This document shows positions 34,529 to 48,589 of a stretch of DNA of 64,000 nucleotides, piece after piece. The stretch comes from Bradymonadia bacterium. Its GTDB lineage: Bacteria; Myxococcota_A; Bradymonadia; UBA7976; UBA1532. Position 1 is the stretch's first letter, and every line of letters starts with the position of its first letter. The stretch lies in the NCBI GenBank assembly GCA_049318805.1, contig JBMOFP010000004.1:493-64492 (forward strand), read 5' to 3'. A program made the position numbers and the translations under genes. The notes below the pieces were generated by a model, which had not been told where the DNA came from, searched no databases, and saw nothing but the letters and a program-made list of their open reading frames with translations.

Positions 34529-36343
34529 CTATTGCAGCCGCGGCCCCGCGAAGTCACCGTTGAACGGCGGGCCCTGGTCCTGCTGGGTGCGGATCGTGCC
34601 CGTCCAGATACCCTCCGTGAGGCTGTCCACGGCGAGGTCGCTCGTCTCTTCGACAAACGTCATCGAGCCCGAGAGCGTGAGGCGGGTGTCGATGCGCAGG
34701 TTGCCGACGATGGCCTCGGCGGCGTCCCCGGCAATGCCGATGACCCCGGTACACCACCCCTCGATGGTGTCGCGGCTCACGATGTCGATGCCGGCGATGG
34801 AGAGTTCGTCGTCTCCGCCCGTGATGCCGTTGGCGAAGGCGGGGCAGTTGGCCAGGTTCAGCAGGGCCTCACGCAGGCTGCGCGCCCCGTCCGCGATGGC
34901 GGGCAGCACGAGGTTGTTGAGCACGAACAGGATGAGCCGGCCGTACTGGAGATCGAGCGTGTGGGGGTCGATCTCGCCCTTGTTGTAGGTGTGGATGCGG
35001 CCGGTGAACTGACCGAAGACCAGGTTGATGCCCTCCAGGCCCATGGCGACCTGGTCCATCGTGAAGGCGAACCGGCCGCACATGGGGTCCGGATTGCCGT
35101 CGCAACCCAGGCGCCAGTAGAAGGCGAGGCCGATCCAGCTCTGCGAGCCATCGTAGGTGCCGTCGGTCCGCGGTTTGGTGATCTGGATGTGGCTGATGAC
35201 CTCGAGGTTCGAGACGATGCTGATGAGGTCGGAGCCGATCTGGAAAAACGACCGGACCCAGGCCGGCCCGTCGTTGTCGATGTAGTTGTTGATGATGTCG
35301 TTGAGGTCGTCCTCGACGAAGCCGCGGATCAGGTCGACGACGAAGCCGCCGATGGCCCCTGCGGCCTCTCGAATCAGACCCTCGACGACGTCGAAGATGA
35401 CGCTGGCGATCTGCCGTTCGTTGTTCTGGTCGCCAAAGAACCGAACCAGCGCCCGAACCACGTCGCCCAGCGTGCCCGGGATGGCGTTGCTGAAGTTGAA
35501 GTGGTTGATCGTGTCGTAGGTGCCCGCGGGATTCAGCGGCAGCAGGAAGAGCGGGACGGTGATGCTCGTGTCGTCGCCCTCGGGGATGCGCAGGTCGCCG
35601 AAACATCCGCCCGCGGCGAGCGTGCCGTTGGCGGCGAGGCGCGCCCGCACGAGCACCGCGGCGGTGCGGCCCGAAAGCGTGGGGCCCAGGTAGGCCTCCT
35701 CGGCGATGGTCTGCACGTTCGCGCTGTGGAGTACGCCTTCGGGCGGCGCGAGGAAGCTCGGCTGATCGCAGAAGTCGGCGTCGTCGATGAGATAGACCTC
35801 GGCGTTGCCGAGACGGACGGGTCCGTTGTAGTCGAAGTCGACGCGCACGCCCCCCATGGGCAGCGCGACGACGTGCACGCGGATCTCCACCACGCGGCTG
35901 GCGGCATGCCAGGCCTTGACGAGGAGCTCCCGCGGCTCGGACGACGCGGTGAGGGACAGGGTCGCACCGCCGTTCTCGTCCGTGACCGAGGCCTGGGCGG
36001 CCAAGGCCGCGTCCAGCGTGTCCGGATCGCCCTCGAGCGCCCAGTTCACACGCTCGCCTTCCACCGGATCACCGCGGCCATCCAGCAGGAGCACCGAGAG
36101 CGGCACCTCGGACGCGACGTTCACCGTCTCTTCGTCTTCCCCGTCGATGACGAGGATGAAGGTCGGGTCCTCGGGGGTCTCGACCGGCGGGACCGGCCGC
36201 CCCGCGTCGTCGAAGACGATCGTTCGGCCCGGCTCCTCGGGCACGTAGACGACCTTCTCCGGCGGCCGCGTCTCGTCGGAGCAGGCGCCGAAGAGCAGCG
36301 CGAGGGCCGCGAACCAGAGTGGCGCGAATCGAAGCGGTGCCAT
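34529..36343 (-). CDS. Lipoprotein with N-terminal Ig-like (Big_1-like) domain
   Basis: Lipobox LFGAC, LDGRGDPVEGERVNW...SVTDENGGATL Ig-like motif, RBS AAGGGGG, extended -10 TGcTATCGT at 36378-36386. Confidence 0.85.
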   Translation of the reverse strand: MAPLRFAPLWFAALALLFGACSDETRPPEKVVYVPEEPGRTIVFDDAGRPVPPVETPEDPTFILVIDGEDEETVNVASEVPLSVLLLDGRGDPVEGERVNWALEGDPDTLDAALAAQASVTDENGGATLSLTASSEPRELLVKAWHAASRVVEIRVHVVALPMGGVRVDFDYNGPVRLGNAEVYLIDDADFCDQPSFLAPPEGVLHSANVQTIAEEAYLGPTLSGRTAAVLVRARLAANGTLAAGGCFGDLRIPEGDDTSITVPLFLLPLNPAGTYDTINHFNFSNAIPGTLGDVVRALVRFFGDQNNERQIASVIFDVVEGLIREAAGAIGGFVVDLIRGFVEDDLNDIINNYIDNDGPAWVRSFFQIGSDLISIVSNLEVISHIQITKPRTDGTYDGSQSWIGLAFYWRLGCDGNPDPMCGRFAFTMDQVAMGLEGINLVFGQFTGRIHTYNKGEIDPHTLDLQYGRLILFVLNNLVLPAIADGARSLREALLNLANCPAFANGITGGDDELSIAGIDIVSRDTIEGWCTGVIGIAGDAAEAIVGNLRIDTRLTLSGSMTFVEETSDLAVDSLTEGIWTGTIRTQQDQGPPFNGDFAGPRLQ

Positions 36344-36424
36344 CACGTGACCCCCTTGTGGTGGCGCGAAGGACGGCACGATAGCACGGCCGGCCGCGGT
36401 CCTGTCACGCGGAGGTCACGGGGC

Positions 36425-36919
36425 TCAACACTCCGCTGCGAACAGCTCCTCGAGCTCCTGGGCGACCTCGGTCTCGTCGCGGCGGCTGGCGAGAGAGAGC
36501 TCCTTCACGAGGAGATTGCGCGCCTGGTCGAGCATCTTGCGCTCGCCGTAGCTCAGGTCCTTGTCGCCCTTCAGTCGGTACAGGTCACGCAGGACACGCG
36601 CGATCTCGTGCACGGAGCCGGTCTTGAGCTTGTCCATGTAGGCGCGGTAGCGGCGATTCCAGGTCTTGTCCTCGGGCTTGCGCCCCGCCTCCTTGAGGAT
36701 CTCGTAGACCCCCGGAATCTCGACCGGATCGATGAGCTCCCGGAGTCCGACGCTGTTGGCCTTCGAGATGGGGATCCGAATCGTCGTCCCGTTCTCGACC
36801 AGTCGGAGCGTGTAGACGTCGACGGTCGACGGGCCGACTTGCATCTGCCCGATGCCCGTTATCTGGCCAATGCCCTGGCCCTGATAGACCGCCATATCCC
36901 CCACCGAAAACTGCACCAT
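36425..36919 (-). CDS. cdnL: CarD/CdnL family RNA-polymerase-binding transcription factor
   Basis: FSVGDMAVYQGQGIG, VGLRELI, KTWNRRYR (conserved Trp), LSYGERKML. 164 aa with no HMGA tail, so CdnL rather than CarD. Confidence 0.93.
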   Translation of the reverse strand: MVQFSVGDMAVYQGQGIGQITGIGQMQVGPSTVDVYTLRLVENGTTIRIPISKANSVGLRELIDPVEIPGVYEILKEAGRKPEDKTWNRRYRAYMDKLKTGSVHEIARVLRDLYRLKGDKDLSYGERKMLDQARNLLVKELSLASRRDETEVAQELEELFAAEC

Positions 36920-37053
36920 CCGAATCTCCCTCCAGAGACGTTCTCCCGGACCTCGCGGCATCGACGGCGACCCACCGTCGCGCGGGGTCGAGATGACAGG
37001 CGCCGAGATGAAACCACGTCGGCCGGTTGCCGACAACGGCTTGACACGCTTCC

Positions 37054-37062
37054 TGATAGTGT
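37054..37062 (+). promoter_or_regulatory. Extended -10 (TGaTAGTGT), likely leaderless start of the helicase
   Basis: 7 nt before ATG 37070. Confidence 0.5.
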
Positions 37063-37069
37063 TCGGCGA

Positions 37070-39181
37070 ATGTCGGAGCGAGCACGCAGAGCCGCCGTGA
37101 GCGGGCCGGAATCGCAGGCGTCGGATCTACCGGGCGCCGCCGTGCCCGGGGGCATCGACGGTGTGCTCGGCGCCGGCGGCTTGATGGCGCGGGTGACGCC
37201 CGGCTTCGAGCCCCGCGCGGGTCAGCTCGACCTCGCCCGTCGAGTCGCCGCGGTCTTCCAGGACGGCGGGGTTCTCCTCGCCGAGGCCGGGACGGGCACC
37301 GGCAAGACGCTGGCGTACCTCGCGGCGGCGTGTGTCACCGGTCGAACCGTGGTCGTGTCCACGGCGACTCGGAACCTGCAGGACCAGATCGTGCGGAAGG
37401 ACGTGCCGAGCCTGGAGCGCGCCCTCGGGCGTCCCATCGAGGCGGCGGTGCTGAAGGGCCGTCAGAACTACCTGTGCCTGTGGCGGCTCGAGCAAATGCG
37501 TGCCCCCGTAGGCTGGGGCGTGTCGTCCGACGTCGTCGACGCTGAGCTCGAGCGGGTCTTGGACTGGTCGTCGTGGACCCAGACCGGCGACCGCGCCGAG
37601 GTCTCGGGCTTGCCCGAGGAGCACCCGCTGTGGGACCGCCTCACGACCACCGCCGAGACCTGCCTCGGCGCGCAGTGTGCGTTCGTGTCGCAGTGTCATG
37701 TGACGCGTGCGCGCGCCGCCGCCGAGAAGGCGAAGCTGCTCATCGTGAACCATGCGCTCTACTTCGGGGACCTGGCCGTGCGCGCCGCGGGGGGCGCGCT
37801 GCTGCCGGAGCACGACGCGGTCGTTTTCGACGAGGCCCACGCCGTCGCCGAGACCGCCGCGCAGTTCTTCGGGGCCCAGGTCTCGAGTCATCGGCTGCTT
37901 CAGGTCCTGGACGACGTGCGGACGGGTGTTCGGTCCGTCTCGGACCTGGAGGGGGCGACGGTGCGCGCCGACGCCGCCCGCGCGCGCCTCGCCGGCGAGG
38001 CGCTGTTCACCGCCCTCCGGGCCGCTGGAGGCGTCTCGAACGCCCCCGAGGCTTTCCAGATGAGCGCGAGCGTGAACCTGAGCAGCGGACCGGACGCCGG
38101 GCGGGTCGGCTGGGGCCCCGCGGACGTGACCCCCGCGCTCGAGACCCTGCATCTCGACCTCGACTCGTCGCTCGAGTTGCTCGGGCAGGCCCTCGCGGCC
38201 ACCCAGGCGGCCGTGGAGGACCGCGGCGGGACGCCGGAGCAGTGGCCTTTGCTCCGGCGTCGGGTTCAGAGCCTGCGCGACGACCTGGCCCGCTTGCTCG
38301 ACCCGCGCGCCCCCGACTGGGTCTACTTCCGGGAGTCTCGCGGCACCGACGTCCGCCTCAGCGGTCAGCCCATCGAGGCCGGACTTCGGTTCGCTCAGGA
38401 GGTGCTCGAGCGTGTCCCCGCCGTCGTGCTCACCTCGGCGACGCTGGCCGTCGGGGGGTCGTTCGAGTACGTCCGTGGGCGCCTCGGCCTGGACGAGCCG
38501 GCCCACGGGGAGCGGGTCGAGGAGGCGACCGTAGAGAGCCCCTTCGACTACGGCGAGCAGGCGCGCCTGTACTTACCCTCCGGCCTGCCCGCCCCGGACG
38601 CCGCCGACTTCATCGAGGCCGTGGTCGCCCACGTCGGTCGGCTCACCGCGTTGACGGCCGGGCGGGCGTTCGTTTTGTTCACCAGTCATCGGAATCTGGA
38701 GGCCGCCCACAGGCGCCTGACGCGGCCCGCGGAGGCCTTCGGGTGGCCCCTGTTGAGACAGGGCGACGCGCCGCGCGCCGCGCTCGTCGAACGGTTCCGG
38801 GCCACCCCGGGTGCGGTGTTGCTGGGGACCGGCAGCTTCTGGGAGGGGGTGGACGTGCCGGGAGACGCGCTCTCGCTCGTGGTCATCGACAAGCTCCCCT
38901 TCGAGCCCCCCAACGATCCCGTGCTCCAGGCCCGTGCGGCGCGCTTCGCCGAGCGCGGGGGGCAGCCGTTCATGCAAATGCAGGTGCCCGCCGCGGCGCT
39001 CGCGCTCAAGCAGGGCTTCGGCCGCTTGATCCGCGTTCGGGGCGATCGCGGCATCGTGGCCGTGCTGGACAGCCGCCTGACCACGAAAGGCTACGGGAAA
39101 CGCATCCTCGCCGCCCTGCCGCCGGCCCCCGTCGTTCGCACCTTCGAAGAGCTCCAGGCGTGGTGGCGCGCGCCGAATTGA
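37070..39181 (+). CDS. DinG/YoaA family Fe-S ATP-dependent DNA helicase
   Basis: RAGQ, EAGTGTGKT, KGRQNYLC, ETCLGAQCAFVSQC (Fe-S Cys), FDEAH, TSATL, FWEGVD, KQGFGRLIR. The track ORF from 34532 is a fused shadow frame. Confidence 0.96.
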   Translation: MSERARRAAVSGPESQASDLPGAAVPGGIDGVLGAGGLMARVTPGFEPRAGQLDLARRVAAVFQDGGVLLAEAGTGTGKTLAYLAAACVTGRTVVVSTATRNLQDQIVRKDVPSLERALGRPIEAAVLKGRQNYLCLWRLEQMRAPVGWGVSSDVVDAELERVLDWSSWTQTGDRAEVSGLPEEHPLWDRLTTTAETCLGAQCAFVSQCHVTRARAAAEKAKLLIVNHALYFGDLAVRAAGGALLPEHDAVVFDEAHAVAETAAQFFGAQVSSHRLLQVLDDVRTGVRSVSDLEGATVRADAARARLAGEALFTALRAAGGVSNAPEAFQMSASVNLSSGPDAGRVGWGPADVTPALETLHLDLDSSLELLGQALAATQAAVEDRGGTPEQWPLLRRRVQSLRDDLARLLDPRAPDWVYFRESRGTDVRLSGQPIEAGLRFAQEVLERVPAVVLTSATLAVGGSFEYVRGRLGLDEPAHGERVEEATVESPFDYGEQARLYLPSGLPAPDAADFIEAVVAHVGRLTALTAGRAFVLFTSHRNLEAAHRRLTRPAEAFGWPLLRQGDAPRAALVERFRATPGAVLLGTGSFWEGVDVPGDALSLVVIDKLPFEPPNDPVLQARAARFAERGGQPFMQMQVPAAALALKQGFGRLIRVRGDRGIVAVLDSRLTTKGYGKRILAALPPAPVVRTFEELQAWWRAPN

Positions 39182-39214
39182 CCGACCTTTCAGCCGCGGC
39201 CTAGGATGCTCCCG

Positions 39215-42200
39215 ATGCTCTCGCCCCGGGACCTCGGTCCGTTGCTGGAGGCCGTGGCGGTGCCGCCGCAGCTGGACGGCCTCGTACGGGCTGCGGCCGC
39301 GGCGATCGAAGGGGGTCGAGCGGACGAAGCCATTCGGCCCCTCGAGTCCTTGTCCGGGAGCGACGCCGTCGTCGTCCCGTGGTTGCTCGGGGCGGCGCAC
39401 CTCAGTCGCTCGGACTACGCCCGGGCCGCACCTTTGTTGGAACGGGCGCTTCAGCTCCAGCCGGCCCTGCCGGGCGCGCAGATCGCCTACGCCCAGGTGC
39501 TCGAGGTCTTCGATGAGCTCGAGAGCGCCGCCGAGTATCTGAGGGCCTGTTTGCAGCAGCGTCCCGACCACGTCGGCGCGATCGCGGGGCTGGCGCGGGT
39601 CTACAATCGCTCTGGTCGTCTCGATCGCGCCGAGGCGCTGGCTCGCCGCGGCCTGGAGCTCGTCCCGGAACACCCCGCCTTGCTGCGGGCCCTCGCGGAC
39701 GCGCTGCGCCGGCAGGACCGGCACGAGGACGCGGTTCGGGTGCTCGAGGTCGCCGTCCGAGCGACCCCGAACGACGAGACGGCGGCGGTGGCGCTCGGTC
39801 GTTCACTCCTGAAGCTCGGTCGAAGCCTCGAAGCGGCGCCGGTCTTCGAGCGTGTCCTGCGCCGCAACGCCGAGAGCACGGGCGCACTCGCGGGCATCGC
39901 CGAGTCGCTCGAACTCTCGGGACGCCACGCCGAGGCGCAGGGCTATCTCTTGCGGGCGATGGCGGCGGCGCCGGAGCAGTCCTGGCTCCATCTGTTGCAC
40001 GGTCGACTCGCGGCGAACACCGGCAATCTGCTCGGCGCCGAGCAGGCCGCGGCCCAGGCGGCCGCCCTGCCGGGACCCGAGCACACACGCATCGACGCGC
40101 TCCGGCTGGCCGTCCGTGTGTCCCGTGGTCGGGGTGACCTCGACGGGTCCGACGACTACGCGCGCCGGCTCTTGGAGTGGTCTCCCGACGATCCGGAGGG
40201 CCGAGTCGCCCGGGCGCTGATGCGTGTGCTCGACGGCGCGGCCGAGGAGGTCCGAGGAGACCTGACGGCGCGGTCGAGTGGCGCCCGCCCGCAGCACGAA
40301 GCCCTCGTCGCTCTAGGCTGTGCGCTCTACGTGACCGGAGACGATCGCGGCGCCGCGGATCGAGCGATCGCCGCCCTGAAGGCCTCGCCGGACGACCTGC
40401 TCGCTCAACGGCTCCTGACGCTGGTCTACGAACCCACCCACACGCCCGCCGAGGAGCGCGCGTCGCGGCTGCGGGCGCGGCTGACGGCGCCGTCGGTGCC
40501 CGCGAACGACTCGACGACCGCGTCCAGGGTGGGTGAGGTGCCGGGCGGCGGGCTTCACCCGTCGGGACGCATCGGGCACCGCGTCACCGGACCGATTCCG
40601 CTCGTCGAGATGGCGGTCCATCAGCTCCTCACGCCCGACCGAGCCCCGGCGACCCCCGCGCGGGGCATGCCGGCCGTGGGCGCGAGCCCGCGCGCACGCC
40701 CGTCCGGCGCCCTGGAGCTGACCGCGATGCCGACCCGGGCGGCCTCCGGCTCGATGCCCGCCATCACGGTGATGAGCCCGGAGGAGGCGGCGGCCCACGC
40801 CGAGGACAGCGTCGAGGAGACCGCGGAGCGGGTCGCGCCCGACGACGGGGCGCTCGCGGGCGAGACCGAACTGGCGGCGCTCCGGGGGCTCCTGGAGCGT
40901 GCGCGCCGCGTATTGACGGGCGACGGGGAGCTGGCGCCCGACCGGTCGGTCGTCGAGCGACTCGCCGACACCCTCGACGACCCGATCACCCTCGCCGTGG
41001 TCGGGCCGAGGGGCGCCGGCAAGACGACCTTCGTCAACGCGCTGATCGGCGAAGACCTGCTGCCGACCTCGTCCGTCGTGCCCCACCTTCTGCGCTACGG
41101 GCGCAAGGCCGCCAGCCGCATCGTGCATCACGACGGCGCGGTCGAAACGGTGCCCATCGAGACGCTCCGAGAGGTGCTCGAGCGGCGCGCCGTGGAGCTC
41201 AAGGACACGCACGTACGCCACGTCGAGCTCGTCTACCCGATCGGCGAGCTGACGCGCGCCAACGTGCTCGAGGTGCCGGATTTGCGGATGGATGGCCCGG
41301 GCTCGCCCGAGGAGCTCTCCGCAAGCGAGGCCCTCGTGCAGAGCGCCGACGCGCTGGTCTGGCTCGCGGGCATCGACCAGGGCATCGAGCCGTGGCGCCT
41401 GGCCGCGCGCTTTCTCGAGGCGCACGCCCGCCCGGCCCTGGCCGTCGTGACCCGTATCGAGGGCCACGACGCCGCCCAGGTCGACATGGCCGTCAGCCGT
41501 GCCCTCGTCACGCTGGGACGTCGGGTCGAGGACGTGGTCGCCGTGAGCGCCCGGGTCGCGCTGAGCGGTCTGCGGTCGCGCAACCTCGAGGACCTACGGC
41601 GAAGCGGCATCGCGAAGCTCCACCGTCTGTTGCGCGCCCGCTTTTTCGGGCGCTCCGCCCTCATCAAGGCGAGCTCCACCCGCAAGCGCTTGCTCGAAGC
41701 GCTGCGCGGCGCGCTTCGCCAGGTGGACGCGCGCGCGGAGCGCCTCGCCGCGCGCCACGCGACGGTGGCCGCGCTGGGCGCGCAGCTCGGGCTGGACCGT
41801 GTTCGCCTGGCGCGCGAGGTGCGCGAGGACGTGCCCCCGCGTGTGCGTGCCGCGGTCGAGCGGGCGGTGCGCGAGACCGCGCCGGAGCTGGTCGAGATCG
41901 CTCGCGAACACCGAGGCGGCCAGGCACGGGTCCACGCCCTGCGCGCGCTGCGCCGGAGCCTGAGGGTCCGCGTCGGCGAGGCGGTCGCGACCATCGGAGA
42001 CGAGCTCGACGAGCGCATCGACCGGTCTTTCCACGGCTACTTCGAGCGCCTCGAGGTGGTCTTCGGGGGCGAGGTCTCGACCCAGGCGCAGCGTGTCCCG
42101 GCGCTCCGCGGCCTGCTCGAGGGTCATCGGATGCTGCGCCTCGAGCAACGATTCGGGCGCTACCAGGCCTACCTCGAGGGCTGGATTGACCAGGCGCCGC

Positions 42201-42487
42201 TCGGCCCGCTCCTCGACGATCCGCTCGTCTCGCGGGGGGTCGAGGCGGTCGCCGCGGGCTTGCGCAACCACGGCCTCGCGCTGGACCTTTTGCCCCCCCT
42301 CGACCTGGCGGAGGTCGCGGAGTCTCTCTTCGATGGTTTCGCCGAGTTCGCGGGCGAGACCAAGGCCGAGGTGCGTGTGAGTCAGATCGAGCTGGGCACG
42401 CGCCTGGGGGAGCCGCTGCGACGTCTCATCCACGAGGTCGAGACGCTGCCGGTCGGCGTTTCGGAGCCCAAGGGGGAGCGCTCGTGA
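39215..42487 (+). CDS. TPR + dynamin-like GTPase-domain fusion protein
   Basis: N-terminal TPRs, Pro/Ala linker, AVVGPRGAGKTTFVNALIGEDLLP...LLRYG, SADALVWL, helical tail. TAGGAT (39202-39207) lies 7 nt before ATG 39215; alternative start 39206. Confidence 0.85.
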   Translation: MLSPRDLGPLLEAVAVPPQLDGLVRAAAAAIEGGRADEAIRPLESLSGSDAVVVPWLLGAAHLSRSDYARAAPLLERALQLQPALPGAQIAYAQVLEVFDELESAAEYLRACLQQRPDHVGAIAGLARVYNRSGRLDRAEALARRGLELVPEHPALLRALADALRRQDRHEDAVRVLEVAVRATPNDETAAVALGRSLLKLGRSLEAAPVFERVLRRNAESTGALAGIAESLELSGRHAEAQGYLLRAMAAAPEQSWLHLLHGRLAANTGNLLGAEQAAAQAAALPGPEHTRIDALRLAVRVSRGRGDLDGSDDYARRLLEWSPDDPEGRVARALMRVLDGAAEEVRGDLTARSSGARPQHEALVALGCALYVTGDDRGAADRAIAALKASPDDLLAQRLLTLVYEPTHTPAEERASRLRARLTAPSVPANDSTTASRVGEVPGGGLHPSGRIGHRVTGPIPLVEMAVHQLLTPDRAPATPARGMPAVGASPRARPSGALELTAMPTRAASGSMPAITVMSPEEAAAHAEDSVEETAERVAPDDGALAGETELAALRGLLERARRVLTGDGELAPDRSVVERLADTLDDPITLAVVGPRGAGKTTFVNALIGEDLLPTSSVVPHLLRYGRKAASRIVHHDGAVETVPIETLREVLERRAVELKDTHVRHVELVYPIGELTRANVLEVPDLRMDGPGSPEELSASEALVQSADALVWLAGIDQGIEPWRLAARFLEAHARPALAVVTRIEGHDAAQVDMAVSRALVTLGRRVEDVVAVSARVALSGLRSRNLEDLRRSGIAKLHRLLRARFFGRSALIKASSTRKRLLEALRGALRQVDARAERLAARHATVAALGAQLGLDRVRLAREVREDVPPRVRAAVERAVRETAPELVEIAREHRGGQARVHALRALRRSLRVRVGEAVATIGDELDERIDRSFHGYFERLEVVFGGEVSTQAQRVPALRGLLEGHRMLRLEQRFGRYQAYLEGWIDQAPLGPLLDDPLVSRGVEAVAAGLRNHGLALDLLPPLDLAEVAESLFDGFAEFAGETKAEVRVSQIELGTRLGEPLRRLIHEVETLPVGVSEPKGERS

Positions 42488-44007
42488 GCGCGCCGCGGCC
42501 GACCCTTCGGGTGTGGCTCGCGACACTGACCCTCTGGGCGTGCGCGGGCGGGGAGCTCGCGGAGTCGGCCGACGGGGCGTTCTCTCCCGTGCCTCGGCCC
42601 CGCCTCGACGGGAGCGTGGCGCTGGGCGAGGCCGGCGTGCCCGTGGGGCCGTCGGCGGACGCGGCGGTCGGGGGCGCCCCGGGGGACGCCACGGTCGGCC
42701 CGAGCGGTGGAACACCCGCTGCGGGCGGCACCGCCCCGCCCGGCCAGGACGCGGCGCCCGTGGACCCTGGCCCCCCCACGGACCCGAACGACCAGGACGG
42801 AGACGGGGTCCCGGTCGCCGACGATTGCGACGACCTCGACCCGGACCGCGCGCCGAACCTGCCCGAGACCCCAGGCGACGGCGTCGACAGCGACTGTGAC
42901 ACCCAGGACGACCTGGCGTGTTTCGCCGCCGCCGATTGCCCGCCCGCCTGGTCCTGCCGCGCGGACTACACCTGCCAGCCCGGATGCCGCCCGGACGACT
43001 GTCGCCCCGGCTTGCGGTGCAACTCCATCGAGCGTGTGTGCCTGCCCGATCCCTCTCTTTCAGGGTGCGGGCGCGACGTGGACTGTCCCGCGGACCAGGC
43101 GTGTGTGCCCTACCGTGTCGTCCGCACGGGCAGTCTGGGCCTTACTTGCCAGCCTCGAGAGGGCGAAGCGGGCCCGGGCGCCGCGTGTGCCGACGACGCC
43201 GAGTGCCGGAGCGGCGTGTGTCTGCGGGGCACGGGCTGCTTCGGCCCGTGTCGCGACGACGCGGACTGCGGGGCCGGAGCGGCGTGCGCGTGGACGCGGC
43301 TCCAGTCCGGAGAGACGCAGAATCGGTTCCGCGTGTGTGTACGCCAGATCCGAGCCTGCACGAGAGACGCGGACTGTGCGGGAGGCGGCGTGTGCGCGGC
43401 CATCGCACGACCGGACGCGCCGCGCGGGGTGGTGCTCGCCTGCGTCGCCCCGTCGCCGGACGCCGGCCCCGGGGGCCCGGGGGCCGCATGCGCCCAGGAC
43501 GCGGACTGCCGCACCGGCGCGTGCCTCGCCGAGGACGGGCTGTGCATCGGGGCCTGCGCCGACGCGGCTGACTGCGCCCCGGGTCAGCGCTGCTATGCCG
43601 CGGGGGTCTTCTACACCGACGATGGGGGGACCGCCGGCCCGGCGGACGACGTCGAGACGGGCCTCCCTCAGTGCCTGCCGGACTTCGGGTCCGACGCGGC
43701 GTGTGACGCGCTCCGCTTCTGCCCGGAAAACGAGGTGTGTTTCCCTCGACGTGCGGCGGACGGCCGCACGTACGAGACCCGGTGTCGGCGCGCGGCCGGA
43801 CCCGGTGTGGCCGGCGCGATGTGTGACGCCGACGGGGACTGCGCCACGGGCGCCTGTGTCGACGGCGGGTGCGTCGGCGTCTGCCATGGACCCGAGGACT
43901 GCGCCCCCGGGAGCTTCTGCGTCGAGCGCCGATGGATCTTCGACGATCGGGGCACGGACGACGTGTACGACGACCACACGCTCGAGGTGGGCCTCTGCGT
44001 CCGGTGA
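42484..44007 (+). CDS. Cys-rich surface lipoprotein (MopE-related metal-binding motif + CxxDxDC repeats)
   Basis: Lipobox LWAC, DCDDLDPDRAPNLPETPGDGVDSDCD and about 9 C..D.DC/EC repeats. Confidence 0.88.
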   Translation: MSAPRPTLRVWLATLTLWACAGGELAESADGAFSPVPRPRLDGSVALGEAGVPVGPSADAAVGGAPGDATVGPSGGTPAAGGTAPPGQDAAPVDPGPPTDPNDQDGDGVPVADDCDDLDPDRAPNLPETPGDGVDSDCDTQDDLACFAAADCPPAWSCRADYTCQPGCRPDDCRPGLRCNSIERVCLPDPSLSGCGRDVDCPADQACVPYRVVRTGSLGLTCQPREGEAGPGAACADDAECRSGVCLRGTGCFGPCRDDADCGAGAACAWTRLQSGETQNRFRVCVRQIRACTRDADCAGGGVCAAIARPDAPRGVVLACVAPSPDAGPGGPGAACAQDADCRTGACLAEDGLCIGACADAADCAPGQRCYAAGVFYTDDGGTAGPADDVETGLPQCLPDFGSDAACDALRFCPENEVCFPRRAADGRTYETRCRRAAGPGVAGAMCDADGDCATGACVDGGCVGVCHGPEDCAPGSFCVERRWIFDDRGTDDVYDDHTLEVGLCVR

Positions 44008-44135
44008 ACGGGGCGCCTTGACGTCCCACGGCGCGTGGTTATTGCTCTGGGTGTGGGTCGATGAGTCAGGCGCCCGGTGCGAGACCGGGAGCGCCGGCGG
44101 CCCTTGCGCTCAACTCAACGCGTGGAGAAGTCCCC

Positions 44136-44597
44136 ATGTGGTATCGCACCCGTCCGTTCCTCGCTGCCCAAACCCCTGAAAACCTGCTGCCCTGGGCCTC
44201 TCTCGAGGAGATCCGGCGGCGCATGGACCGGGTCCTCGACGACGTGTCGCGCAGCGACACCGAGGCCGTCGACCGTTCCGCCGCCCACGTCTTCGAAGAC
44301 ACCGGCACCTCGCTCGTGCTGCGGGCCGACCTGCCCGGAGTGACCGAGAAGGACCTGACCGTGACCTTGCAGCGCAACGTGCTCGGGCTGACGGTCCGGC
44401 GCACGCTGGAGCGTCCCGAGGGCTTTCGCCCGCACCGCCAGGAGCGTTCGAGCTTCGAGCGCACCTGGACGCTGCCGCTTCCGGCCCGCGTCGATCCCGA
44501 GAAGGTCAAGGCGACGCTCGCCGACGGCGAGCTGACGGTCACGCTCGCGAAGGCCATCGAGGACCAGCCGCGCACCGTCGCCGTTCAGGTTGCCTGA
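44136..44597 (+). CDS. Hsp20/alpha-crystallin small heat-shock protein
   Basis: RADLPGV, FERTWTLPLPARVDPEKVKATLADGELTVTL. RBS GGAGA before ATG 44136. Confidence 0.93.
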   Translation: MWYRTRPFLAAQTPENLLPWASLEEIRRRMDRVLDDVSRSDTEAVDRSAAHVFEDTGTSLVLRADLPGVTEKDLTVTLQRNVLGLTVRRTLERPEGFRPHRQERSSFERTWTLPLPARVDPEKVKATLADGELTVTLAKAIEDQPRTVAVQVA

Positions 44598-44637
44598 GCA
44601 TCCCACCCCTCTCTTCACCTCAAAGGACACCCATCCC

Positions 44638-45003
44638 ATGAATCCCCGTTCACGAGAGACCGCGGCTTCGCATCGAAACACCCCCGAGCAGACCCGTACC
44701 GAGCGCGCCGTGACCCCCGCCGTCGACATCTGGGAGAGCGAGACCGCGCTCCGGATCGTCGCGGACCTGCCCGGCGTGAAGCGCGACGACCTGCGCCTTC
44801 ACCTCGAGGCGGAGCGGTTGAGCCTGGAGGCGCGCCGCGCCCAGAGCGGAGAGCCGCCCGTCGTCTACCGTCGACAGTTCGCGCTGGCGCCGCTCTTCGA
44901 CGCCGACCAGGTGACGGCCGCGCTGGATCGAGGGGTGTTGACGATCACCCTGCCGAAGTCGAAGTCCACGCAGCCGCGGCAGATCCCCGTCACGGTGGGC
45001 TGA
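44638..45003 (+). CDS. Hsp20/alpha-crystallin small heat-shock protein
   Basis: PAVDIWES, ADLPGV, YRRQFAL, DRGVLTITLPK. RBS AAAGGA. Confidence 0.93.
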   Translation: MNPRSRETAASHRNTPEQTRTERAVTPAVDIWESETALRIVADLPGVKRDDLRLHLEAERLSLEARRAQSGEPPVVYRRQFALAPLFDADQVTAALDRGVLTITLPKSKSTQPRQIPVTVG

Positions 45004-46537
45004 CGCCCGGCGGCGGGGCGCAGGTGGCCCGTGCGCTCACGAGCTCCGGGTCGTCCGCGCCCAGGACCTCGAGCGCGTCGCCCAGCGCACACGCGCGCAG
45101 CAGCATGCGGCCCACGGGCGCGCGCCAGCGAGTGCGGGGCTGGCAGCGCCACGCCGCGCGCGCGTCCTCGGCGGCTTCGGCGATCCGCCCGGCGCGCGCC
45201 TGCAGCGTCGCGCGGTTGAAGTAGGCCGGGCACAGGTCGGGGCGCACCGCGATCGCCACGGTGAAGTGCGCGAAGGCGTCGGCGTCTCGGCCCTGCTCCG
45301 CGCGAATCGAGCCCAGATTCGCGTGGGCGCGCCCGACCTCGGGGGCGACCTCGAGGGTCGAGGTCCAGAGCGTCTCTTCGCTATGCCAATCCTCGACCCG
45401 AGTCCAGGTCCGCAAGAGCATCAGCGTCAGCAGCGGCGCCATGAGCGCGGCCAGCCGCGTGGGCCGCAACGCGCCGCTCTGCAGGCGCGGGTGACACAAG
45501 GCCGCCGCACCGAGCCCGCACAGACCCCACAGCGCGATGTAGGTGCGGTGCTCGGCGAGGAGCTCGTGATGCGGCTTGAGCTGACTCGAAGGGAGAAGAA
45601 ACAGGAACCACCACGCGAGTCCCAGCGTGATCCCGGGCGCCTTCCGTGCCGCGAGGACCGCCGCGACGACCGACCCGCCGATGAGCACGAGGCCCGCCAT
45701 CGGTCCGACCTCGAGAAGGCCCGTCGCGATGGGGAAACCGTTGGGGGAGTAGTCTGCCTGCAGGTCCGCCGGCCACAGCGCGAGACCGAAGTAGTGCAGG
45801 TGCCCGTGCAGCACCGTGCCCACGTGCGCCGCGAGCCCACCCCCCCAAAGCCCGGCCCGTTGAGAGTGGTCGTGCGCCCCGAACTTCCAGAGCGCGAAGG
45901 TCGCGATCCACCCCCACCAGACGGCCAACATCCGCCAACGACGCAGGTCCGGTCGAAGCAGGTGGAGCACCCCGAGGACCAGGCCCGTGGCGGCCGCGGA
46001 CTCGTGGGAGAGGAGACCGAGCGTCAGTACGGCGAGGCCTTGCAGGTCGCGTCGGGAGAGCCACGCGTGCACGGCGAGCAGCGAAAAGAGGCAGGCCATG
46101 ACATCTCGCCGGCCGGCGATGTTGGCCACGGCCTCGACGCCGAGGGGGTGGACGGCGAAGAGCAGCGCCGTCGCGAGGGCGAGGGCGGCGTGCCCGAAGA
46201 GCCGACGCACGAGCAGGCCGCCCGTGAAGACCACGAGGGCGTGCAGGACCACGTTCGTCAGGTGATAGCCCCAGGGCTGCAGCCCGTAGACCTCGTACTC
46301 GAGCGCGTGTGTGGTCGATCGGAGCGGACGAAGCGTGCAGATCGAGCCCGAGTCGAAGTCGAACATCGCGGGGATGCGCTCGACGCCGTGGTGGCAATCC
46401 GTGGCCACGAGGAGCGGCACGTCGTCGAAGACGAAGCCGCCGGCGAGCGCGCCGCCGTAGGCCAGGAACGCGACGCCGAGCGCCGCGAGCAACAGCGCGG
46501 CGAGCCTCGCGGGGGAGTCTGTCGGGTGTACGCCCAC
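44990..46537 (-). CDS. TMTC-like GT-C membrane glycosyltransferase with C-terminal TPR
   Basis: GGFVFDD, LRPL, YHLTNVVLHA, LFAVHPLGVEAVANIAGR, LWPADLQADY, AEHRTY, WHSEETLW, then TPR. Confidence 0.85.
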   Translation of the reverse strand: MGVHPTDSPARLAALLLAALGVAFLAYGGALAGGFVFDDVPLLVATDCHHGVERIPAMFDFDSGSICTLRPLRSTTHALEYEVYGLQPWGYHLTNVVLHALVVFTGGLLVRRLFGHAALALATALLFAVHPLGVEAVANIAGRRDVMACLFSLLAVHAWLSRRDLQGLAVLTLGLLSHESAAATGLVLGVLHLLRPDLRRWRMLAVWWGWIATFALWKFGAHDHSQRAGLWGGGLAAHVGTVLHGHLHYFGLALWPADLQADYSPNGFPIATGLLEVGPMAGLVLIGGSVVAAVLAARKAPGITLGLAWWFLFLLPSSQLKPHHELLAEHRTYIALWGLCGLGAAALCHPRLQSGALRPTRLAALMAPLLTLMLLRTWTRVEDWHSEETLWTSTLEVAPEVGRAHANLGSIRAEQGRDADAFAHFTVAIAVRPDLCPAYFNRATLQARAGRIAEAAEDARAAWRCQPRTRWRAPVGRMLLRACALGDALEVLGADDPELVSARATCAPPPGVSPP

Positions 46538-46616
46538 GCCGCGACGATGGCACGACCCGCGCCGAGACGCATCCCGACGCTTGCTGCAACGCCGCGGGTC
46601 CGTCAACGTGCCCGGC

Positions 46617-48200
46617 ATGAACGCACCCACGCCGACGCCCTGGTCCGAGGCGCGGACCGCCCTCGACGCCTGGCGCGAGGACACACGCACGAACTACTAC
46701 GAAGCGGATCCGCTGCTGGACCGCGTTCTGCGCCGGCACCTCGAGCCCGCGGCCTACGCGGCGGCACGGCCCGGGCTCGTGGACTTCGGCGCCCTGAGCG
46801 CGCAGGTGCTCGATCCGCTGATTCGCGAGAACAACCGGGACGAGAATCTGCCTCGGCTGCGGCGCTTCGACGACTTCGGCCACCGCATCGACGCCGTCGA
46901 TTTTCACCCGAACTACGGGGAGATCGGACGCCACGTCTACCGAACGCCCGTGATTCGAGGCTACGCGGAGCCTGGCCAGGAGCGCGTGCAGCTCGCCTAC
47001 GCTTACCTGCTCGCGCACCACGGAGAGGGCGGGCACCTCTGCCCGTTGGCGTGCACCGCGGGCCTGGTCAAGCTGCTCCAACATCGGGGCGACGATGGGC
47101 TCAAGGCGCGGCTTCTCCCCGGGCTCCTGCACGACGACCGCCTCGCGCCCGAACACCTGCACGGTGCGCAGTTCCTGACCGAGATCCAGGGCGGGTCCGA
47201 CGTCGGCGCGAACGCGCTCCGGGCCACACGCGACGGGTCGGACTGGCGCCTCGACGGGGAGAAGTGGTTCTGCTCGGTGATCGACGCGGACCTCTACCTC
47301 GTCACCGCGCGCCCCGACGGGGCCGCCCCCGGCACCGCCGGCCTCGGCGCGTTCGTGGTGCCGCGCCTTCGACCGGACGGCAGCCTGAACGGCGTGCACG
47401 TGCGGCGCCTGAAGTACAAGCTCGGCACGCGCAGCATGGCCAGCGGTGAGGCGGACTTCGTGGACTGCTTCGCCTGGGCGCTCGGTCCCACCGAGGGCGC
47501 GTTCAAGGCCGTGGTCGAGGTCGTGCTGAACACGAGCCGCGTCTACAACGCCGTGGCCGCCTGCGGCGTGATGCGTCGGGCCGAGCTCGAGGCCACGGCC
47601 TATGCGCGGCACCGCACGGCGTTCGGCCGACCCATCGACCAGTTCGTCGACGTCCGGCGAACGCTCGACGGCCTCCGGGCGCGCCGCTCCCTGGCCGTGG
47701 CCGGGACCTTCGCGCTGATCGCGCTCCAGGACCGCATCGCGCTCGGCGCCGCCACGGCCGGGGAGCGAGACGTCTTCCGCCTGGTGGTGAACATGAACAA
47801 GTACGCCACCGCCTGCGCGTCGACGGACCAGGTGCGCGCGGCCATCGAGGTCCTGGGGGGCAACGGCGCCATCGAGGAGTTCTCGGTGCTGCCGCGCCTC
47901 CTGCGGGACAGCATCGTCGTCGAGGCGTGGGAGGGGACCCACAACGTCTTGTGCGCCCAGGTGCTCCGCGACCTGCACAAGTTCGGGCTCCACCGGCCGT
48001 TCTTCGCGGGCCTCAGGACCGCATCGGCGGCCCTCTCGAGCGCGCCGACCTCGGGCGAGATCGAGGCGCTTTCGAGAGAAACGGAGGCCCTCCTCGCGTC
48101 GGATCCCGACACGCAGACGCTCGGCATGCGCGCGCTCGTCGATCGGCTCGTCGACCTGTGGCAGCGTGTTGCTCTGGCGGAAGTCGAGGGGGGCCGATGA
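46617..48200 (+). CDS. Acyl-CoA dehydrogenase, AidB-like
   Basis: GHLCPLACT, AQFLTEIQGGSDVG, LDGEKWFCS, RRLKYKLGTRSMASGE, LGGNG, EAWEGTHNV. Confidence 0.92.
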   Translation: MNAPTPTPWSEARTALDAWREDTRTNYYEADPLLDRVLRRHLEPAAYAAARPGLVDFGALSAQVLDPLIRENNRDENLPRLRRFDDFGHRIDAVDFHPNYGEIGRHVYRTPVIRGYAEPGQERVQLAYAYLLAHHGEGGHLCPLACTAGLVKLLQHRGDDGLKARLLPGLLHDDRLAPEHLHGAQFLTEIQGGSDVGANALRATRDGSDWRLDGEKWFCSVIDADLYLVTARPDGAAPGTAGLGAFVVPRLRPDGSLNGVHVRRLKYKLGTRSMASGEADFVDCFAWALGPTEGAFKAVVEVVLNTSRVYNAVAACGVMRRAELEATAYARHRTAFGRPIDQFVDVRRTLDGLRARRSLAVAGTFALIALQDRIALGAATAGERDVFRLVVNMNKYATACASTDQVRAAIEVLGGNGAIEEFSVLPRLLRDSIVVEAWEGTHNVLCAQVLRDLHKFGLHRPFFAGLRTASAALSSAPTSGEIEALSRETEALLASDPDTQTLGMRALVDRLVDLWQRVALAEVEGGR

Positions 48201-48589
48201 GCGCTGAACTTCAGGTCCTCGCACTCGTGAGCCTGTGGGGCATCGTCGTCCTGTACATCGCATCCGCCGGGCGCCTCCGGGTCGGCGGCGTCGGGTGGGG
48301 CCTCGGCAACCGTGAGAACGACCCGGTCTTTCCCGCGTGGGTCGGTCGCGCCGAGCGCGCCTACCGCAACCACGCCGAGAACTGGCCCCTGTACGTCGGC
48401 GCGGCTCTGGCCCTGCACCTGAGCGGGCGCGCGACCGAGACGACGGCGCTCGCGGCGTGGGTTTTCCTCGGTGCGCGCATCGCCCACACGGGTCTCTACG
48501 TCGCGGGCGTCACCGTCGCACGCACCGCCGCGTACTATGTGAGTCTCGGTGCCCTCGGGCTGATGTACCTGCGCGCCCTCAGCGGCTGA
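48197..48589 (+). CDS. MAPEG family membrane protein
   Basis: RAERAYRNHAENWPLY...FLGARIAH. ATGA overlap with the ACAD gene. Confidence 0.92.
   Translation: MSAELQVLALVSLWGIVVLYIASAGRLRVGGVGWGLGNRENDPVFPAWVGRAERAYRNHAENWPLYVGAALALHLSGRATETTALAAWVFLGARIAHTGLYVAGVTVARTAAYYVSLGALGLMYLRALSG

Follow-up and report, generated by a model that had tools for sequence, protein, structure and literature searches.

A TPR-fused dynamin-like protein of a Bradymonadia bacterium with GTPase motifs altered throughout its clade: a candidate pseudo-dynamin scaffold

In the accepted picture, bacterial dynamins are paired GTPases in which hydrolysis is triggered by assembly. What, then, is the role of a dynamin-like protein (DLP) that is encoded without a partner and that departs from the canonical sequence in most of its GTPase motifs? 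The question is raised by a gene (39215-42487, forward strand) within a 64,000-nucleotide stretch of a Bradymonadia bacterium (assembly GCA_049318805.1, contig JBMOFP010000004.1, positions 493 to 64,492), the whole of which is referred to as the window in this study. The gene product, here called TPR-DLP, joins tetratricopeptide repeats (TPRs) to a DLP module. A preliminary description, made from the letters of the DNA, had suggested either a solitary pseudo-GTPase scaffold or an NTPase with altered specificity. We find that the altered motifs are shared by an entire clade and that the domain carrying them is strongly conserved. On balance, we lean slightly toward reading TPR-DLP as a "pseudo-dynamin" scaffold, slow or locked, which would bind nucleotide but would no longer act as a dimerisation-stimulated GTPase.

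Architecture and fold of TPR-DLP

TPR-DLP is a three-part protein composed of a TPR platform, a disordered linker and a dynamin-like module of the mitofusin/BDLP type (BDLP, bacterial dynamin-like protein). All of its parts lie on the forward strand, and residue numbers are counted from an ATG at 39206, upstream of the likelier start codon. The TPR solenoid (residues 21-426; 39266-40483) consists of 24 helices in about 12 repeats and has a predicted local distance difference test score (pLDDT) above 90 in a full-length AlphaFold2 model; many Pfam TPR families match residues ~30-330, several of them above cutoff. Both the family matches and the helices correspond to the tandem 34-residue helix-turn-helix solenoid that is typical of TPR proteins, and the roughly 400 residues of N-terminal TPRs in the preliminary description are thereby confirmed. 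The linker (residues 427-546, about 120 residues; 40484-40843) is rich in Pro, Ala and Ser and is disordered, with a pLDDT below 50 at residues 433-545. The DLP module consists of two N-terminal neck helices (residues 547-589; 40844-40972), a dynamin-type G domain with altered motifs (residues 590-800; 40973-41605) and a four-helix neck/trunk, or stalk (residues 801-1080; 41606-42445), the long helices of which span residues 814-901, 905-953, 959-996 and 1037-1080 in the full-length model. That model, with a pLDDT of 86 and a predicted template modelling score (pTM) of 0.50, is uninformative on contacts between the TPR and DLP parts because of the disordered linker and the low pTM. The protein is cytoplasmic. 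No transmembrane segment or hydrophobic paddle was seen in a Kyte-Doolittle scan, in which no stretch of 15 residues exceeded 1.5 (the maximum was 1.5), although an amphipathic membrane-binding element could escape such a scan.

The DLP module (residues 555-1093) was also folded separately with an alignment of 35 homologues, yielding a model with a mean pLDDT of 91.4 and a pTM of 0.80. The top Foldseek matches of this model in the PDB all belong to the dynamin superfamily, with IniA first at 6e-15, followed by Nostoc BDLP and Cj-DLP2 and then by Drp1, MxB, SynDLP, mitofusins and LeoA. For the G-domain region, Foldseek and VIA gave matches to Mfn1, Fzo1, IniA, BDLP and Cj-DLP; the VIA alignment to the minimal GTPase domain construct of Mfn1 covers residues 1-532 of the DLP model, and the alignments to BDLP and SynDLP cover residues 1-537. 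Cj-DLP2 (5owv_C) gave both the best whole-chain superposition (TMq 0.56) and the best PDB sequence match (3.4e-7 with the single sequence, 5.7e-28 with the family profile). The same profile matches BDLP at 9.6e-21, and the neighbours of the DLP in the ESM Atlas are Dynamin_N clusters. A dynamin-type large G domain flanked by neck helices and a helical stalk, the two hallmarks of the superfamily, are thus both present, and the proposal of a dynamin-like protein is borne out by structure prediction and by Foldseek. The Dynamin_N profile of Pfam (PF00350), suggested as a check in the preliminary description, gave a less clear answer: it scored 26.6 bits, just under the gathering score of 27, and matched only about half of the profile (positions 1-80 of 168), while the protein reached 30.8 bits in a six-frame search of the genome. 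A precomputed PF00350 match is present in only some members of clade A, the group of close homologues described below.

Altered motifs, their descent and their conservation

The P-loop of the window protein (G1 or Walker A, GPRGAGKT; 41003-41026) retains Lys606 and Thr607. Its position 4 is Gly, whereas Ser or Asn occurs there in canonical relatives (GEF[NS]xGKS) and in Cj-DLP2; this position presumably corresponds to dynamin Ser41, a helper in the coordination of the catalytic cation. Switch I (G2, LPTSSVVP; 41060-41083) carries a true deletion of four residues when compared to canonical relatives, and its conserved Thr is replaced by Ser. The G3 position reads EVPD (41270-41281) instead of the canonical DTPG and is followed by a switch II insertion of 6-8 residues (LRMDGPGS; 41282-41305), which is species-specific in the alignments and falls below a pLDDT of 50 at residues 144-146 of the DLP model. 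The DGPG of this insertion was considered as a displaced G3 (DxxG) and was not relied on, because the insertion is confined to this species, its position is beyond the end of the beta-strand and its pLDDT is low. At the G4 position, TRIE (41450-41461) stands in place of NKxD, and a G5-like SAR (41546-41554) is conserved both in clade A and in clade B, a more distant set of TPR-DLPs. Among the canonical elements (GxxxxGK[ST], switch I Thr, DxxG and [NT]KxD), G1 alone is therefore present. The intact P-loop, the shortened switch I and the EVPD of the preliminary description all stand at these positions. Its G4 sequence stands as well, but the word "eroded" is overstated for the clade, since T-R-x-D falls within the range of G4 variants of bona fide GTP-binding proteins, such as TKxD in dynamin, TLRD in GBP1 and THLD in LRRK2 (10.1101/2019.12.24.888222), so that only the change from Asp to Glu in the window protein is odd. 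The RGK GTPases Rad and Rem2 have a G3, DxWE, whose last residue is Glu (10.1101/2019.12.24.888222).

Are these changes private to one genome? An exhaustive homologue search of a library of 1.84 billion representatives returned only 15 clusters at E<=1e-30, which make up clade A, and among 401 sampled Myxococcota genomes strong matches were found only in the window's own family, as a single copy in 11 of 17 genomes. The homologous records carry names such as Myxococcales, Nannocystaceae and lake "Loclat" metagenome-assembled genomes. Throughout clade A, G1 follows G-[PA]-x-G-A-G-[KR]-T, without Ser or Asn at position 4 in any of the 15 representatives; all 15 have the four-residue deletion in switch I, while the position of the second PTT threonine is still Thr or Ser. 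The clade consensus at G3 is D-x-P-[DE] or, with all variants counted, D-x-P-[DEGT], the Gly being absent in 13 representatives and present in two. G4 is [TSA][RHQ]x[DE], with N-K in none of the 15, and G5 is SA. Clade-wide invariant residues are present in these proteins. A few members have gone further: the Walker A Lys is replaced by Arg in three of them (L022 on G341:C34, P0045 and P0046; GPPGVGRT, GPAGAGRT), of which L022 and P0046, possibly one lineage, also have DPPT at G3 and ARAD at G4 and have lost the SA of G5, and the G4 of one member is reduced to NS-KG. As the non-canonical motifs recur in the close homologues, the altered state is conserved and clade-defining rather than the result of private decay; only the distant sister group is canonical. 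A G fold whose degenerate motifs are conserved across orthologues, as seen here in 15 of 15 representatives, is one of the two hallmarks of a pseudoGTPase, the other being a lack of GTP hydrolysis and/or nucleotide binding.

That sister group, clade B, was examined in about 50 representatives and 18 genome loci. It is canonical in G1-G3 throughout (GEF[NS]xGKS, P-x-G-x-x-PTTA and DTPG), and nearly all members have N[KQ]xD as their G4, the two exceptions being NMID and NRMD. In a maximum-likelihood tree of the G domain, rooted on two partner DLPs of ~590 residues, clade A is monophyletic (SH-aLRT 100), sits on a stem of 1.32 changes per site and is nested among the canonical TPR-DLPs, which argues that the motif changes arose once, from a canonical ancestor. 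The terminal branch leading to the window protein is long (0.77).

To what extent the degenerate domain is maintained can be seen from pairwise Nei-Gojobori ratios of nonsynonymous to synonymous substitutions (dN/dS) among close orthologues, all of which are approximate as dS lies between 0.6 and 1.0 and is partly saturated. For the pair L016 and L017, dN/dS is 0.007 in the TPR part, 0.039 in the G domain, 0.078 in the stalk and 0.23 in the linker. In the next orthologue pairs the G domain is at 0.12-0.16, while among close orthologues the TPR part ranges from 0.007 to 0.12 and the linker, the fastest part, from 0.23 to 0.93. The G domain thus evolves more slowly than the stalk and far more slowly than the linker; degenerate as it is, it is no less constrained than the stalk and is under strong purifying selection. 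The members that carry Arg in Walker A or NS-KG at G4 point, at the same time, to a selected function that does not depend on catalysis.

Within the otherwise fast linker, one clade-specific motif stands out in the alignment, HRVTGPIPLVEMAVHQLL (residues 459-476, 18 residues; 40580-40633, forward strand). Its consensus, RRxTGPIxP[LIM]VExAV[NH]xLL, is present in 17 of 17 clade A rows of the alignment and in 0 of 13 canonical rows, and AlphaFold2 places a short, low-confidence helix at residues 467-475 within it. The motif may be a docking peptide for the TPR groove of the protein itself or for a partner.

The missing partner, the neighbours and the promoter

Bacterial DLPs usually occur as operon pairs, and Cj-DLP1 and Cj-DLP2 are inactive alone (PMC6104087); their GTP turnover is stimulated by assembly, which the authors ascribed to G-dimerisation (PMC6104087). 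Such a pairing is not seen in the window genome. Searches of this genome, which is 92.7% complete, with PF00350, clade B and partner-DLP queries revealed no second DLP: the clade B and partner-DLP queries returned the window gene only, and the other Dynamin_N matches were Era, Der and HflX, so that a hidden partner is rejected at the sensitivity used. The protein had been called solitary, and in this sense it is. The nearest genera gave the same picture. Some other genomes of the family encode, at unrelated loci, further DLPs whose G3 is a canonical DxPG (G410:C757, G346:C588, G116:C24 and G341:C1, that is, L129, L130, L133 and L134); active dynamins have therefore not disappeared from the family altogether.

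The situation is different among the canonical TPR-DLPs of other Myxococcota. At the two loci that were annotated (L123:567-10033 and L125:2095-9604), an apparent four-gene operon encodes an FHA-domain protein, an M48 peptidase, a DLP of ~590 residues and, as the last gene, the TPR-DLP, with Dynamin_N scores of 99-111 bits for the partner DLP and 94 bits for the TPR-DLP. In four more sampled genomes, the TPR-DLP lies some 3-4.7 kb away from a further DLP match. This adjacency fits the operon-pair rule for bacterial DLPs, and no description of such a four-gene operon was found in our literature searches.

In the window, the gene is preceded on the same strand by a gene for a DNA repair helicase of the YoaA/DinG family (37070-39181; 663.5 bits with the NCBIfam YoaA model, cutoff 680), as had been stated in the preliminary description. 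The helicase corresponds to the last 703 codons of a 1549-residue open frame (34532-39181, forward strand), the remainder of which was dismissed as a high-GC artefact; the G+C content of the window is 66-75%. Further upstream, on the reverse strand, lie genes for a CarD/CdnL-like protein (36425-37036) and a Big_1-like protein (34529-36379). Downstream, the GTG start of a gene for a putative Cys-rich lipoprotein (42484-44007, forward strand) overlaps the TPR-DLP stop codon (GTGA); its product has weak MopE and Dickkopf-like matches and a possible lipobox, LWAC, and the gene follows TPR-DLP in only 6 of 14 clade loci. Two HSP20/alpha-crystallin genes follow in tandem (44061-44597 and 44590-45003, forward strand) with an overlap of 8 nucleotides, and the pair is kept in the closest relatives, L049 and L140. 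A further open reading frame (ORF; 45381-48263, reverse strand) encodes 960 residues without a Pfam or NCBIfam match and has counterparts of 46-47% identity in L049 and L140.

This order belongs to a syntenic block of clade A: PEGA and Big-like genes, a CarD/CdnL-like gene on the reverse strand, then YoaA on the forward strand, TPR-DLP, the Cys-rich lipoprotein and two HSP20 genes. YoaA lies upstream of TPR-DLP in about 9 of 14 clade loci; in three it is missing, with CarD directly adjacent, and in two both YoaA and CarD are missing. Since neither CarD nor YoaA was found beside the DLP in about 70 more distant loci (L051, which appears with them, is a clade A fragment), the idea that the locus is shared with clade B was rejected. 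We take the adjacency to YoaA to be inherited family synteny and not evidence of joint function.

The gap of 24-33 nucleotides between the yoaA and TPR-DLP genes holds a sigma-70-like element, TTGACC-N18-TAGGAT (39178-39207, forward strand; one site against 0.1 expected in shuffled sequences). TTGACC-N18-TAnnnT also occurs upstream of the orthologue in L049, L139, L140, L142 and L136, making six genomes together with the window. Because this promoter-like element is conserved, the TPR-DLP gene probably has its own promoter, with YoaA transcribed separately. The -10 hexamer ends 8 nucleotides before the ATG at 39215, which suggests an mRNA that is leaderless or has a very short leader in the window. 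The ATG at 39215, giving 1090 residues, seems the likelier start codon, as the 99%-identical database homologues P0004 and P0005 have 1090 residues and as an AGGA lies 8 nucleotides 5' of it; the alternative at 39206 (forward strand) would give 1093 residues.

Possible function and comparison with known systems

How might such a protein have arisen and what might it do? The ancestor was a canonical Myxococcota TPR-DLP, a type that at the two annotated loci is encoded beside a partner DLP of ~590 residues. On the stem of the clade, the gene moved to a different locus without a partner, and the protein lost the Ser or Asn of the P-loop, four residues of switch I, the glycine of G3 and the N-K of G4, while keeping the Lys-Thr of Walker A, the Thr or Ser of switch I, the acidic residues of G3 and G4 and the SA of G5. 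Such a protein would probably still bind nucleotide, most likely guanine, and would have given up dimerisation-stimulated GTP hydrolysis. We propose that it could self-assemble through its stalk and present its TPR platform to clients as a static scaffold. We favour this scaffold because four elements changed together on the stem, because no partner is present in the genome, because Lys-to-Arg changes in Walker A are tolerated and because the domain is strongly constrained. A bolder version, which we put forward tentatively and would not yet bet on, is that clade A would be the first bacterial pseudo-dynamin, having abandoned hydrolysis that depends on a partner and on dimerisation while keeping the fold and the pocket under strong selection; it would be a nucleotide-locked or nucleotide-sensing TPR scaffold, and its linker motif might dock onto, or autoinhibit, the TPR groove of the protein itself or bind a client.

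Several points weigh against the scaffold. The retained Lys and Thr, the switch I Thr or Ser, the Asp of G3, the Asp or Glu of G4 and the SA of G5 would equally fit an active enzyme with unusual motifs. The purifying selection, measured by ratios that are approximate, shows that the G domain has a function and not which function it has. The window protein also departs from the rest of its clade by three conservative changes (Thr to Ser in switch I, Asp to Glu in G3 and Asp to Glu in G4), at positions where the L015/G241 orthologue, for example, has T, D and D, as well as by the insertion, and its behaviour may differ from that of the clade consensus. Self-assembly, membrane binding and TPR clients are proposals, and no hydrophobic paddle is visible. 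The two options of the preliminary description, a pseudo-GTPase scaffold and an NTPase with altered specificity, thus turned out to be the right pair, with neither the fold nor the homologues speaking against them, even though sequence alone cannot choose between the two.

The second option, an active NTPase that remodels membranes as a homo-oligomer like other BDLPs, would require a different catalytic arrangement, for instance with an acidic residue at the position of the G3 Gly, or a base specificity changed through the T-R-x-E of G4. We take it seriously but consider it less likely than the scaffold, as the Ser or Asn of the P-loop, the four residues of switch I, the Gly of G3 and the G4 N-K changed together on the stem, and as three members tolerate Arg in Walker A and one has NS-KG at G4. 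Far less probable, in our judgement, is a function in which it would join YoaA and the CarD/CdnL-like factor in repairing DNA or handling the chromosome, comparable to that of E. coli CrfC, which is tied to the replisome clamp. The order CarD, YoaA, TPR-DLP in about 9 of 14 clade loci would fit it, and so would a match to the NCBIfam CrfC model (NF007368). However, that match (15.6 bits, E 0.0038, against a cutoff of 1146 bits) is limited to the P-loop region, YoaA is missing in 5 of the 14 loci, in two of them together with CarD, the promoter-like element separates the two genes in six genomes, and the whole PEGA/Big/CarD/YoaA block is syntenic, as vertical inheritance within one family predicts; a functional link to YoaA is therefore weak.

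An even smaller chance is given to an anti-phage defence system of the LeoA/LeoBC kind, although a defence role had been raised in the preliminary description and PADLOC did report a LeoA match. This match is weak (E 2e-6) and covers residues 777-936 of the stalk only, as would be expected for any DLP of the Cj-DLP2/LeoA type; PADLOC found neither a LeoBC match nor defence neighbours at the locus, and no LeoBC-like partner was found in the genome. The neighbours (CdnL, YoaA and HSP20) are housekeeping-like, their synteny is family-wide rather than that of a variable island, and the GC content is uniform. That the gene is a decaying relic, on its way to a pseudogene after loss of the partner, is hardly credible. 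The loss of canonical motifs and partner and the long terminal branch of 0.77 might suggest it, yet every clade member found has an intact ORF of ~1000-1140 residues, the closest pair has a dN/dS of 0.007-0.08 in the TPR part, the G domain and the stalk, and both the clade-wide invariant residues and the promoter-like element are conserved; for the clade, this idea is refuted by the selection data.

If the scaffold reading is true, clade A would extend the pseudo-GTPase idea, known from fungal Mmc1, to bacterial dynamins. It would offer a ready-made case of separation of function, a dynamin fold without the dynamin cycle in a domain kept at a dN/dS of about 0.04, with the canonical sister TPR-DLPs as matched controls. 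Its impact is limited by the fact that the organism is uncultured and that nothing points to the cellular process served. Our literature searches returned no description of a TPR-dynamin fusion in myxobacteria, no relevant survey of BDLP architectures and no bacterial counterpart of a pseudo-dynamin, Mmc1 being the nearest conceptual precedent.

The phylogenetic parent group, clade B (e.g., L125:6785-9604 and L123:7103-10033), likewise consists of proteins with a TPR part, a linker and a DLP part, 850-1100 residues in length and 24-33% identical to the DLP part of the window protein. Unlike the window protein, they have full-length Dynamin_N matches (94 bits) and canonical motifs, and they lack both the clade A linker motif and the CarD-YoaA locus; as far as our literature searches show, they are uncharacterised. 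The nearest known relatives are of the subtype of Cj-DLP2 of Campylobacter jejuni (PDB 5OWV chain C) and LeoA of enterotoxigenic E. coli (4AUR), in which, as in the window protein, neck helices flank the G domain and a continuous helical neck/trunk follows it. Cj-DLP2, however, has canonical G1-G4 motifs and is active only in the presence of DLP1, the partner encoded beside it (PMC6104087), whereas the window protein has altered G1-G4 motifs and no partner; it also differs in having 550 N-terminal residues of TPRs and linker and in having no recognisable hydrophobic lipid-binding motif at the tip of the trunk. Mfn1/Fzo1, Nostoc BDLP and mycobacterial IniA, GTPases of the fusion-type dynamin superfamily, differ from the window protein in having a DxxG G3, a full-length switch I and membrane anchors or paddles, and in carrying no TPRs.

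Two further comparisons concern the motifs themselves. In the RGK GTPases Rad and Rem2, the Gly of G3 is replaced by an acidic residue next to a normal P-loop, as in the G3 of clade A (10.1101/2019.12.24.888222); these are small proteins of the Ras family and serve as an analogy for the behaviour of the motif, with no homology beyond the G-domain fold. Fungal Mmc1 is a dynamin-related pseudoenzyme that has the dynamin fold without its catalytic motifs and has been proposed to be a static scaffold capable of self-association (10.1101/2023.10.03.560745). Mmc1 is a mitochondrial protein that has none of the GTP-binding motifs and has transmembrane segments as anchors, whereas the window protein is bacterial, predicted to be soluble and fused to TPRs, and has kept Walker A and several of the residues that contact the nucleotide.

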